DNA of 64,000 nt from a virus (IMGVR_UViG_3300042154_002208); one strand, 5' to 3'; positions 36,813 through 40,258 are shown, counted from the first letter of the stretch. Numbers and translations: made by a program. The notes: a model not told the origin generated them from the letters alone.

Positions 36813-37487
36813 ATGATCTATAATCATGTTAAGGTGAAAGAATTTGAGGAACTGGAACAAGTTACTCGAGAAGATGGAGTAAGATTTTACGCAACACCCA
36901 AAGGTAAAAAATATCCTTCGGTGACTACTGTTTTATCAGCGCATGGTAAACAAGGATTAATGGAATGGCGTAAAAGAGTAGGTGAAGAACAAGCAAATAA
37001 AATTTCAAGCGCTGCCGCAAGACGTGGCACTAAAATGCACTTGCATTGTGAAAATTATCTTAATAATGTCAATGTGCTAGATACAATTCCAGTATTTCAA
37101 AAAGAATTGTTTGAAAGTATTATCCCATATCTACATAAAATTAATAATGTTCATGTTCAAGAACAAAGATTATATTCTGACCATTTAAGATTGGCAGGAA
37201 CTGTAGATTGTGTTGCCGAATATGAAGGTCGCTTAGCAATCATAGATTATAAAACATCTAGCAGACGAAAAGCTAAAGAACACATTCATAATTATTTTAT
37301 GCAGTGTGCTGCATATGCAGTTATGTATGAAGAACGAACAGGTACACCTGTAAGCAAATTAGTTATTATTATGGCAGTCGAAGACGATGAACCTCAAGTA
37401 TTTGTCGAAAAACGAGATAATTGGGTAACCAAATTATTGGAGTACAGAGATTTGTACGAAAAGGACAAACAACTTTTGACTTCTTAA
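36813..37487 (+). CDS. PD-(D/E)XK exonuclease
   Basis: YPSVTTVL, RGT..H, AGTVDC, IIDYKTS and Q..AYA. Confidence 0.9.
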   Translation: MIYNHVKVKEFEELEQVTREDGVRFYATPKGKKYPSVTTVLSAHGKQGLMEWRKRVGEEQANKISSAAARRGTKMHLHCENYLNNVNVLDTIPVFQKELFESIIPYLHKINNVHVQEQRLYSDHLRLAGTVDCVAEYEGRLAIIDYKTSSRRKAKEHIHNYFMQCAAYAVMYEERTGTPVSKLVIIMAVEDDEPQVFVEKRDNWVTKLLEYRDLYEKDKQLLTS

Positions 37488-37504
37488 ACAAAAGGCATTA
37501 TAAT
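37476..37504 (+). promoter_or_regulatory. Sigma70 promoter of tmRNA
   Basis: TTGACT-17-TATAAT; predicted start near 37510-37511. Confidence 0.85.
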
Positions 37505-37510
37505 AGAGTT

Positions 37511-37854
37511 ATTGCTGTATGAAGCAAAGAGAAACAGATTCTGGACGCGGGTGCGAATCCCGCCAGGTCCACCATAAAGATTTACCGCCCGAACCGCAGA
37601 AGCCAAATTCTTGTTGCGGTAAAGGATGCGAGGGTTGTGTTTGGATTAGTTATTTTGAAGCACACAACCTTTGGAAAAGTCTTTATGATGGGCCTGAAAT
37701 AGATTCGACAGGGTAAAGAGTACCAGAGTGGACAGCACATCAGAGTAGATGTTAAAACTAAAACAAAGTAAACGCAAACGACTCACAGTTCGCATTAGCA
37801 GCCTAAACTCTGCTTAGGGTTTCGATAGGTTTCCTCGTAACAGAATAACCTATC
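37511..37854 (+). ncRNA. ssrA: Circularly permuted (two-piece) tmRNA; tag ANDSQFALAA
   Basis: Acceptor piece with T-arm and CAGGTCC-A-CCA ends at 37574. Coding piece starts GGGCCTG at 37690 and gives a 7-bp stem with G3-U70. Tag frame 37774-37806. The ends of the two pieces are approximate. Confidence 0.93.
37519..37716 (+). CDS. Oxidored-like (PF09791-type) four-Cys protein overlapping the tmRNA
   Basis: PPEP....CCGKGCEGCVW..Y.E....W lies entirely in the tmRNA intervening segment; translation is unproven. Confidence 0.55.
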   Translation: MKQRETDSGRGCESRQVHHKDLPPEPQKPNSCCGKGCEGCVWISYFEAHNLWKSLYDGPEIDSTG

Positions 37855-37889
37855 ATTTCACAAACACTCATACACACAAGGAGATTAAA

Positions 37890-38162
37890 ATGAGTAATAT
37901 GACACCGTTCGAAATTAGATTAGAACTTTTAAAAATGGCCAAAGATATGCTTGGTGACGATTACTACGGTAAACGTGAAGTAATATCTAACGATTGGGCT
38001 ACTAAGGTAGAGACAGCTAAACATGCTGGCCAAACACCTCCAGAGCATCCGGGCTATCCTGCCTACCCCTCAGAAACTGATATTATTGCAAAGGCTCATG
38101 TATTGAATGGCTTTGTTTCTAACATTCCTCAAGATAATATAAAGACTATTAGTAAAAAGTAA
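37890..38162 (+). CDS. Conserved hypothetical protein
   Basis: MTPFEIRLELLKMAKDML...II.KA..LNGFVS motif; RBS AGGAG. Confidence 0.85.
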   Translation: MSNMTPFEIRLELLKMAKDMLGDDYYGKREVISNDWATKVETAKHAGQTPPEHPGYPAYPSETDIIAKAHVLNGFVSNIPQDNIKTISKK

Positions 38163-39041: not shown

Positions 39042-39569
39042 ATGTCTACATTAAAAGAACAAACTTACGAAAAACACAAAGAAGCGGAAACCCAAGCTTT
39101 TATCAAAGAGATTTTTCAAAAGAGAGTTGATAAAAATAAGTATGCGGAATACCTCTATCAATTATACTTAGTATATCATGCAATGGAAAACATTGCAGGT
39201 CCAAAATTAGGTGCATATGAAGGTATCCCTGGTCTTTACAGATCTAAAGCAATTTTTGAAGATTTTCAGGAATTGGCAGTACCGGATAAAACATATACCA
39301 TTAAAGAATCCACATTAAGGTATATTCAGTATATCATGGACATTACTAAGCATGATGATTTAATTGCACATATGTATGTAAGATACTTAGGTGATTTAAA
39401 TGGCGGACAAATTTTTGCTAAGCTTGTTCCTGGTTCCGGCAAAATGTTTCAATTCGAAAATAAAGAAGAGCTAACAGAAAAGTTCCGAGCCAAATTAAAA
39501 GACGACATGGGTAAAGAGGCCTGTGTTGGATTTGATTATAATATACAAATTGTTAAGGAATTTAACTAA
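39042..39569 (+). CDS. Heme oxygenase (HO1/HemO-like)
   Basis: LKEQT...H..AE (proximal His), YL.QL..VY..ME and H.YVRYLGDL.GGQ. Confidence 0.9.
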   Translation: MSTLKEQTYEKHKEAETQAFIKEIFQKRVDKNKYAEYLYQLYLVYHAMENIAGPKLGAYEGIPGLYRSKAIFEDFQELAVPDKTYTIKESTLRYIQYIMDITKHDDLIAHMYVRYLGDLNGGQIFAKLVPGSGKMFQFENKEELTEKFRAKLKDDMGKEACVGFDYNIQIVKEFN

Positions 39570-40258
39570 TGTCTTCGGTGTGGGATACGTTAATTAAGAT
39601 TGAACAATATCTTGAACATAAATTTTATGCTACCGGTAGTATTATACACGAACCAGCCATGGAGCGTTTTAATCAGCCGGGTTGGGTAAATAAAGTATGG
39701 GCCAGTAGCCGATACCGAAGAGCACACATTGACGTGGTAGATGCTCGTGAAACTAAAGGACTTTGGATGATGCATTGTTGCATCTTTCCGCATACACACA
39801 ATCCCGCACCTATCTTTGGATTTGATGTTATAGCAGGTAAAAATAAGATTACCGGGTGTTTTATTGATTACAGTCCTGCGGGCGATGTGAACCACCACAT
39901 GATTAAATATTTTGGTGAAGAAGTTAGAAAATACGAATGGAATAAAAAACGCAAACTACCAGACTGGGCCGAACGTATTTTCAGTGAGCATATGGTAGCT
40001 GCTGGTAACGTAAGTGAAGAAAATGAATTAAAACAACTTACAAGTTTGGCACATATCCTAGTTAATCATTATGTAGACACAGTAGATGAAACTAATCAAA
40101 CTGCTAACGATACAGCACCTGAACAGAATTATTATTGTGAAAATCAAAAACAAAATCCGCACACTCCTAAAGTTATGGTTAGTTTGGGGTTGAGTGAAGA
40201 TGATGTTCGGCATTTTATTCAGGAATGCTTGTTCCCAGAATTACAAAAATTAAAATGA
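39569..40258 (+). CDS. Ferredoxin-dependent bilin reductase (PcyA/PcyX family)
   Basis: RRAH, MHCCIFP (catalytic His), PIFGFDV (catalytic Asp), F.DYSP, LP.W...IFS and YC..Q..NPHT. Confidence 0.88.
   Translation: MSSVWDTLIKIEQYLEHKFYATGSIIHEPAMERFNQPGWVNKVWASSRYRRAHIDVVDARETKGLWMMHCCIFPHTHNPAPIFGFDVIAGKNKITGCFIDYSPAGDVNHHMIKYFGEEVRKYEWNKKRKLPDWAERIFSEHMVAAGNVSEENELKQLTSLAHILVNHYVDTVDETNQTANDTAPEQNYYCENQKQNPHTPKVMVSLGLSEDDVRHFIQECLFPELQKLK

Follow-up and report, generated by a model that had tools for sequence, protein, structure and literature searches.

A four-cysteine PF09791 domain with signatures of protein-coding selection in the spacer of a permuted tmRNA gene of freshwater T4-like phages

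Two-piece tmRNAs have been documented in aquatic T4-like phages, e.g., in the OM43 phage Melnitz and in pelagimyophages (PMC9004378). Their genes feature the same order of acceptor piece, spacer and coding piece as the gene described here, with a promoter of the sigma-70 or late type located directly upstream, and they likewise encode a host-like proteolysis tag and reside among T4-like replication genes. In published two-piece phage tmRNAs the spacer is treated as non-coding, whereas the spacer analyzed in this study is predicted to encode a selected protein domain as part of an ORF overlapping both tmRNA pieces. A tmRNA database paper published in 2025 described a tRNA-Ala gene and a repetitive element as spacer inserts and reported no spacer ORF (PMC11915505). 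Such inserts likewise represent foreign functional sequences tolerated within the spacer, but they are RNA genes or repeats and not protein-coding. A ribosome-profiling paper on Sinorhizobium concerns the tmRNA tag only. A search of the literature on permuted phage tmRNA, spacer ORFs and PF09791/OXLD1 retrieved no account of any protein gene located within a tmRNA spacer, which agrees with the original prediction for this locus, whose author was not aware of a described case.

Architecture of the two-piece tmRNA gene

The window, i.e., the whole stretch of 64,000 nucleotides analyzed, derives from a freshwater T4-like phage with a G+C content of approximately 36%, and its DNA was found across many lake-water metagenomes. 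Genes in the neighborhood of the tmRNA encode PhoH, a GH19 endolysin-like protein, a PD-(D/E)XK exonuclease, a cell-wall hydrolase, a haem oxygenase, a ferredoxin-dependent bilin reductase, gp59 and gp32. Neither the locus nor the peptide has a close relative in the INPHARED collection of GenBank phages, and no PHROGs family was matched by the 65-aa product.

Based on Rfam and ARAGORN results, a permuted (two-piece) tmRNA, as claimed in the original prediction, was located at positions 37513-37806. The Rfam model RF04321 (tmRNA_permuted) matched over its whole length (model positions 1-213) with 113.1 bits at a cut-off of 47, and RF01850 (beta_tmRNA) matched with 103.6 bits at a cut-off of 84, its alignment extending to position 37860. 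ARAGORN likewise called a permuted tmRNA with the tag ANDSQFALAA, placing the gene start at 37482. The order of elements is permuted, with the T-arm, the 3' acceptor strand and CCA lying upstream of the 5' acceptor strand, which is followed by the tag frame. The 7-bp acceptor stem CAGGUCC/GGGCCUG is retained in 17 of 17 relatives.

All parts of the gene are encoded on the plus strand. The acceptor piece (37513..37574), delimited by means of the RF04321 alignment, ARAGORN and the sequence itself, is composed of a 5' pairing strand, the T-arm, the 3' acceptor strand and CCA (37572-37574), and doubles as codons 1-19 of a 65-codon ORF. It is followed by the spacer, an intervening segment of 115 nt (37575..37689) between CCA and the first G of GGGCCUG that is predicted to be lost when the tmRNA matures; the spacer length, the CCA end at 37574 and the mature 5' G at 37690 proposed earlier agree with the sequence. 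The coding piece (37690..37860; RF01850 and ARAGORN) comprises the 5' acceptor strand GGGCCUG, the tag frame and a 3' hairpin. Within this piece, the reading frame of the tag ANDSQFALAA including its stop occupies 37774..37806 (ARAGORN, gene positions 293-325). A putative sigma-70-type promoter, TTGACT-17 nt-TATAAT, was found at 37476..37504 (consensus scan 11/12), with a predicted transcript start at approximately 37511, and the promoter region of the Rfam beta_tmRNA model aligns onto the same segment, 37476-37504. As part of the explanation favored below, the locus probably represents a working phage two-piece tmRNA gene with a predicted role in trans-translation.

Several further observations were made on related loci. 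The promoter box in front of the acceptor piece varies by lineage, being either a sigma-70-type TATAAT or a T4-late-like TAAATA at equal distance, and these alternating types imply differing expression timing of the tmRNA and the spacer gene. Directly after the tmRNA, the window contains a 90-aa ORF (37890-38162, plus strand) with a strong AAGGAG site; it is kept downstream of the tmRNA in most related loci and was assigned to no Pfam or PHROG family. Some phage permuted tmRNAs (L001-L003, L031, L057, L074/75, L090/91) encode unusually long tags of 27 residues, starting with A-K/N-A-N-T-T-V-T-V-S-G-K-N and finishing with L-A-V or V-L-A, as compared to the usual ANDxxFALAA. One spacer class is paired with both tag types, which suggests a modular exchange of pieces. 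At three loci (L009 on a 68-kb contig, L007 and L060), bacterial-looking transporter genes (SBP_bac_3, SDF, NifU, TctC, DctP) adjoin a phage-type tmRNA; these could be auxiliary genes of very large phages, or the contigs could be chimeras assembled at the conserved tmRNA. The neighbors of the L007/L060 tmRNA encode DctP, TctC, a hydrolase and GATase as well as tRNAs, and the corresponding 72-kb record is a phage fragment of 21% completeness according to IMG/VR and CheckV. None of 401 sampled Burkholderiales genomes matched it closely beyond the conserved tag region. The tmRNA of L007/L060 probably originates from a large phage rather than from a bacterial host ssrA.

The reading frame and the selection acting on it

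The 65-codon ORF (P0001; 37519..37716, plus strand) extends from ATG (37519-37521) to TAA (37714-37716) and consists of a tmRNA-derived N-tail, a four-cysteine PF09791 domain and a C-tail corresponding to the first 24 nt of the coding piece. It has neither its own start nor its own stop inside the spacer, and its frame is continuous with both tmRNA pieces. Start and stop are those given in the original prediction, and translation yields 65 aa including the peptide quoted there. The Oxidored-like pattern recognized at that time was recovered by the Pfam profile PF09791 (E 2.5e-10, 40.3 bits at a gathering cut-off of 24, profile positions 7-39 of 46), and relatives from every gene layout scored 36-48 bits, all above the PF09791 cut-off.

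Among 66 homologues, the residues C32, C33, C37 and C40, which form a CC-x-x-x-C-x-x-C motif, are invariant, and P29, G34, G36, V41 and W42 are conserved in at least 90%. An AlphaFold2 model calculated with these 66 homologues was confident for residues 21-57 only (pLDDT 84-91), representing the cysteine loop and a helix at residues 41-56, and the tmRNA-derived tails remained below a pLDDT of 50. The predicted product would be a 38-residue metal-binding knuckle with a helix, flanked by disordered tails set by the tmRNA sequence. A Foldseek search of the model against the PDB returned no match, and VIA-align provided helical chance matches only, with a best Z of 3.3 or lower.

Homologues of 62-97% identity within a collection of 5.8 billion proteins keep the CCGxGCxxCVW motif, and a permuted tmRNA is found at the corresponding site of their contigs. 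Scanning of IMG/VR yielded 80 loci, and the segment from the CCA end to the coding piece was cut out of each. The 32 distinct domain-type spacers obtained fall into three classes (115, 115 and 109 nt), and many of them differ by synonymous changes only. The frame and the four cysteines are conserved among about 35 distinct relatives on phage contigs of lake and other aquatic origin. Decayed spacer versions also occur: at L065 (3053-3110) an internal deletion removes the cysteine region, and at L061 and L062 the second cysteine is replaced by tyrosine (TGT TAT). Variable sites are distributed over codon positions 1, 2 and 3 as 14, 15 and 31, respectively. Pairwise dN/dS values according to Nei-Gojobori are 0.17 in the ORF frame and 1.9 and 0.95 in the other two frames. 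Under the GY codon model in IQ-TREE, omega was estimated at 0.088, with lnL -866.9 as compared to -962.0 for omega fixed at 1 (2dlnL 190); for the 30 core codons outside the closing stem of the spacer, omega was 0.074 (2dlnL 169). Synonymous divergence (dS) between the spacer classes is approximately 1. The original prediction had proposed to examine homologous spacers for conservation of the frame, the four cysteines and a dN/dS below 1, and it held up in this respect, the frame being open in all 32 spacers.

A second functional copy could have maintained the spacer copy by gene conversion. The complete, terminally redundant 346,856-bp genome of a T4-like phage contains a single PF09791 match, namely the spacer copy, and the window also contains only one. 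Gene conversion from a second functional copy is excluded, since the spacer copy is the sole PF09791 match both in the complete phage genome and in the window. The sequence comparisons strongly support the view that the spacer domain codes for protein and that strong purifying selection acts on it in no fewer than three diverged classes of spacer.

A sample independent of the domain was obtained with a DNA-pattern scan relying on the T-arm and the acceptor strand only, which resulted in at least 117 loci. Among the matches listed, 109 have a complete spacer, and 15 of these carry the domain. The other spacers among the matches listed are 25-385 nt long, mutually unrelated and mostly interrupted by stops in the ORF frame. 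Because stops mostly occur there, the frame is not kept open by the tmRNA context.

Part of the spacer is shaped by RNA structure. RNAalifold analysis of 17 relatives recovered the acceptor stem and a closing stem of approximately 10 bp, which is formed by the two spacer ends, extends over CCA and the final spacer bases, continues the acceptor stem and features compensatory changes at two pairs; no covariation was observed for interior spacer helices in these relatives. Due to the closing stem, even unrelated spacers begin with H/Q-K and end with F/Y-D in the ORF frame. The first three and the last five spacer codons are shaped by RNA, and the middle is shaped by the protein. The precursor is predicted to fold with -53 kcal/mol, and the spacer of the window folds unusually well (z -5.7).

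RNA contigs from metatranscriptomes of four lake studies, all representing mixed communities, covered 37510-37602 and 37696-37850, and none covered 37603-37664. These contigs mix in relatives with other spacers, and RNA ends are not visible from them. A search with the spacer alone identified one run with one 151-nt contig (37529-37679) reaching from CCA into the spacer, the library of which is probably DNA.

These data bear on the view that the spacer is an untranslated relic, i.e., that a captured gene lost its start and was kept for the sake of spacer length or fold during processing. The absence of a start codon of the domain's own, the decayed versions at L065 (deletion) and L061/L062 (Cys-to-Tyr), the RNA contigs devoid of the spacer and its low folding z-score of -5.7 are in line with a relic, but this explanation is considered highly improbable. 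Omega values of 0.07-0.09 at a dS of approximately 1 between classes, with changes mostly at third positions, form a pattern that RNA constraints do not give. Moreover, interior helices are devoid of covariation, and dN/dS is near or above 1 in the other frames. The unrelated content and the range of 25-385 nt found for related tmRNA spacers among the matches listed imply that no particular length or sequence is needed, and there is no second copy by which the spacer could be overwritten through gene conversion.

Gene layouts around the tmRNA and the start of translation

The domain gene was also encountered outside the spacer. At L070-L075, L077 and L078, it immediately precedes the acceptor piece and starts with an ATG of its own; the acceptor piece is read in the same frame, up to a stop 13 nt behind CCA. 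The upstream gene of L064 and L066 reads through a different acceptor piece in another frame, at L067 the gene ends just before the acceptor piece, and at L068 (354-kb contig) it occurs with no tmRNA within 3 kb. Judged by these layouts, the domain gene is an autonomous small phage gene that was joined to tmRNA genes in at least two ways. An origin of the upstream layout from a decayed first acceptor piece was also considered and rejected, the L074 upstream alignment reaching a score of 17 as compared to 16 +/- 2.7 for shuffled sequences.

In other phage tmRNAs, longer spacers accommodate entire small genes of the form CCA-UAAGGA-N4-7-AUG ... stop, the stop often being a UGA one base ahead of GGGCCUG. 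L086, L103 and L155, among others, have spacer genes equipped with a ribosome-binding site and an ATG. A 284-nt spacer at L103:2967-3224 (minus strand), L114:9750-10007 (plus strand) and L184 encodes an 86-aa Cys-rich protein of family PF03692 (CxxCxxCC, putative Zn/Fe-chelating), i.e., a second, unrelated Cys-rich domain in the tmRNA spacer slot. The 382-nt spacer at L155:10241-10606 and L188:4248-4613 (both minus strand) is taken up by a conserved 122-aa ORF that matches no Pfam family; its UAAGGA-N6-AUG immediately follows CCA, and its stop precedes GGGCCUG by 1 nt. Further slot products comprise 101, 59 and 52 aa, and several are membrane peptides. According to these sequences, the tmRNA spacer is a general slot for small phage genes. 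The gene of the window shares with them the position between CCA and GGGCCUG, enclosed by the closing stem. In contrast to the self-contained slot genes, it features no ribosome-binding site and ATG of its own within approximately 20 nt after CCA and no stop at the spacer end, its frame continuing to 37714-37716.

Two side observations concern these slots. The 122-aa ORF contains a G-x-G-K motif reminiscent of acetyltransferases. Moreover, the 385-nt spacer of L187 features tandem acceptor pieces, each followed by an ORF-bearing spacer (one ORF of 41 aa, the other encoding a 32-aa membrane peptide), before a single coding piece.

For the ORF of the window, the only canonical in-frame start is ATG 37519 in the 5' part of the acceptor piece, located approximately 8 nt from the predicted transcript start and lacking a clear Shine-Dalgarno sequence. 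Within the spacer, no in-frame ATG, GTG or TTG precedes the cysteine motif in any of the three classes. Free-standing and upstream copies of the gene start with M-Y-P-x-P-x-x-P-T-x-CCG, where the spacer copies have F-Y-P-R-P, L-P-P-E-P or L-E-P-I-P; from this alignment we infer that the spacer version lost the ATG that free-standing copies have. Since the spacer lacks an ATG of its own, the start would have to be AUG 37519.

Of 35 distinct domain-bearing genes, 34 possess an ATG 56 nt before the CCA end that is followed by an open frame, and the remaining one has ACG at this site and an in-frame ATG 63 nt further upstream. In genes without the domain, ATG and an open frame were found in 62 of 83 cases, and 21 of 83 carry a stop or no ATG. 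The difference in upstream in-frame ATG with an open frame between both groups (35/35 vs. 62/83) is significant when shared ancestry is ignored (Fisher p 4e-4). A fused start at ATG 37519 is supported by these sequence counts, but they stop short of proof because ATG is common in this tmRNA clade. AUG 37519 occurs in 75% of domain-less relatives and may simply be part of the RNA.

An alternative view likewise assumes translation of the domain, but places its start elsewhere than at AUG 37519 of the transcript that yields the tmRNA. Initiation would occur at a non-canonical codon near the Shine-Dalgarno-like UAAAGA or UAAGG after CCA, or long read-through mRNAs from the exonuclease gene would be translated by coupling or re-initiation, with the promoter transcript being purely a tmRNA precursor, as in the two-transcript model of the original prediction. 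In the three contexts inspected, the upstream gene lies on the same strand, the distance from its end to the ATG is 18-51 nt, and no terminator was predicted in between. Furthermore, the sequence right after CCA resembles the Shine-Dalgarno sequence of other spacer genes, and the frequency of AUG 37519 in domain-less tmRNAs also fits this view. It is nevertheless deemed rather unlikely: the three spacer classes offer no in-frame ATG, GTG or TTG upstream of the domain, the frame from the AUG is open in every domain-bearing gene, as opposed to the 21 of 83 other genes with a stop or without ATG, and AUG 37519 would serve read-through transcripts as well.

In the preferred explanation, which is considered probable, the spacer of a working two-piece tmRNA gene became the coding sequence of a small four-cysteine PF09791 domain, started at AUG 37519. 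The ribosome would begin at this codon in the acceptor piece, read the T-arm, the acceptor strand, CCA and the spacer, and encounter the stop nine codons into the coding piece. Either the primary transcript before processing or a transcript reading through from the upstream gene would serve as messenger. Cleavage by RNase P at 37690 and trimming of the 3' side back to CCA would destroy this messenger, so that each transcript would give either tmRNA or protein. As a point against this explanation, the stable T-arm and the precursor fold of -53 kcal/mol would have to be read through by the ribosome.

Two mutually exclusive products from one locus are plausible in view of the arrangement of the sequence. 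The division of labor suggested at the outset, with the sigma-70 transcript yielding tmRNA and the read-through transcript serving as mRNA, is a conjecture. A more far-reaching version of the preferred explanation is possible, but tentative: the tmRNA precursor would act as a conventional mRNA, with the mature acceptor piece providing the start and the first 19 codons. Nucleotides of the acceptor piece would be doubly selected, as tRNA-like structure and as codons, and competition of translation with RNase P and 3' processing would set the ratio of tmRNA to protein. Leftovers of cleavage would represent non-stop messengers to be cleared by the tmRNA system.

Possible function and comparison with known systems

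In the window, the genes for haem oxygenase and ferredoxin-dependent bilin reductase are located at 39042-40258 (plus strand) and overlap at a TAATG junction. The window lacks photosynthesis genes, and the gene pair fits PcyX-type cassettes of non-cyanobacterial phages. The original prediction had speculated on a redox role of the spacer protein for these enzymes, encoded 1.3 kb downstream. Under such a reading, the protein, possibly a small Fe-S carrier, would be the redox partner of the haem oxygenase and the PcyX-type bilin reductase. The four invariant cysteines are in line with such a role, and 18 of the 41 loci with the domain, as compared to 6 of 63 others, feature both genes in the 3 kb downstream. 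This enrichment tracks phage lineage, however, and many loci are near-duplicates. The remaining 23 of the 41 spacer-domain loci, including the whole 109-nt class, lack the two genes within approximately 3 kb downstream; L001 and the complete 347-kb phage also possess the domain without having these genes nearby. Conversely, six loci, L009 and L010 among them, have the genes but not the domain. The redox role for these enzymes is therefore not obligate. PF09791 is, moreover, widespread in organisms lacking bilin synthesis, and to our knowledge the CCGxGCxxC spacing differs from that of known ferredoxins. A dedicated redox partner of the two enzymes appears very improbable.

Relatives in other organisms provide a different hint. 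Among solved structures, the only one containing a PF09791 protein, as judged by sequence, is that of the Chaetomium thermophilum complex I, where it is chain o (7zm7, 7zmb, 7zmg). One atypical subunit was described for this complex, sitting atop the peripheral arm at the site of NDUFV3 (PMC9699679); we infer that it corresponds to chain o. Human OXLD1 is imported into the mitochondrial matrix (PMC8664129), and its knock-down lowered complex I and V activities in one study, a weak cell-biology paper (PMC12413873). A biochemical characterization of any PF09791 member was not found in the literature. By analogy, the phage product might dock on a host redox or respiratory enzyme, a proposal made with low confidence.

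Screening the genomes of 185,579 species identified five free-standing relatives only, in Variovorax, other Burkholderiales and Competibacteraceae. All five were checked for a nearby tmRNA, and none was present at the four loci with a full flank of +/-3 kb. The neighborhoods of bacterial PF09791 genes (TctC, DctP, patatin, PRC-barrel, rpsJ-tuf) provided no consistent functional clue. In a single instance (L214:492-731), a bacterial free-standing PF09791 gene is oriented divergently from the adjoining rpsJ and tuf genes.

If the interpretation favored here is correct, several consequences arise. Spacers of tmRNAs are regarded as throw-away sequence, and tmRNA genes are masked as non-coding during automated annotation. 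Small phage genes such as the spacer domain would be systematically missed, or called with their overlap unnoticed. The locus would provide a compact natural system for studying how transcripts are partitioned between RNA maturation and translation. Furthermore, the PF09791/OXLD1 domain becomes tied to phage infection in three gene layouts around the tmRNA, and the phage version offers a minimal 38-residue form of PF09791 for biochemistry. If the protein indeed acted on respiratory or redox enzymes of the host, this would be a new auxiliary function of abundant freshwater phages. Likewise, if the precursor served as mRNA, such phage tmRNA genes, together with those in the upstream layout, would constitute a new class of bifunctional coding/stable-RNA genes.

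With OXLD1, the complex I subunit and the Variovorax proteins, the predicted product has in common the P-x-P...CCGxGCxxCVW segment followed by a helix, and it is 61% identical to the Variovorax proteins over the domain. It differs from these PF09791 proteins in being a bare domain that is encoded inside a tmRNA gene. The slot genes of other phage tmRNAs have the slot, the closing stem and a small product in common with the gene of the window, but carry their own UAAGGA Shine-Dalgarno sequence, ATG and stop within the spacer, where the latter has neither start nor stop.

Beyond tmRNA, intervening sequences of bacterial 23S rRNA containing an ORF of the S23p family (Pfam PF05635) are known from Leptospira and Coxiella. 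There, too, a small protein gene resides in a segment closed by a stem and cut out of the precursor of a stable RNA; these sequences differ in the host RNA, in excision by RNase III and in their self-contained ORF, which does not enter the mature RNA parts. Dual-function RNAs acting as regulator and as mRNA, such as SgrS/SgrT and RNAIII/hld, likewise combine an RNA function and a small protein in one transcript. In these cases both functions reside on the mature RNA, whereas maturation at the locus described here would eliminate the messenger. Genes residing within segments excised from stable RNAs are already known; the unusual feature of this locus is that the codons overlap functional tmRNA structure.
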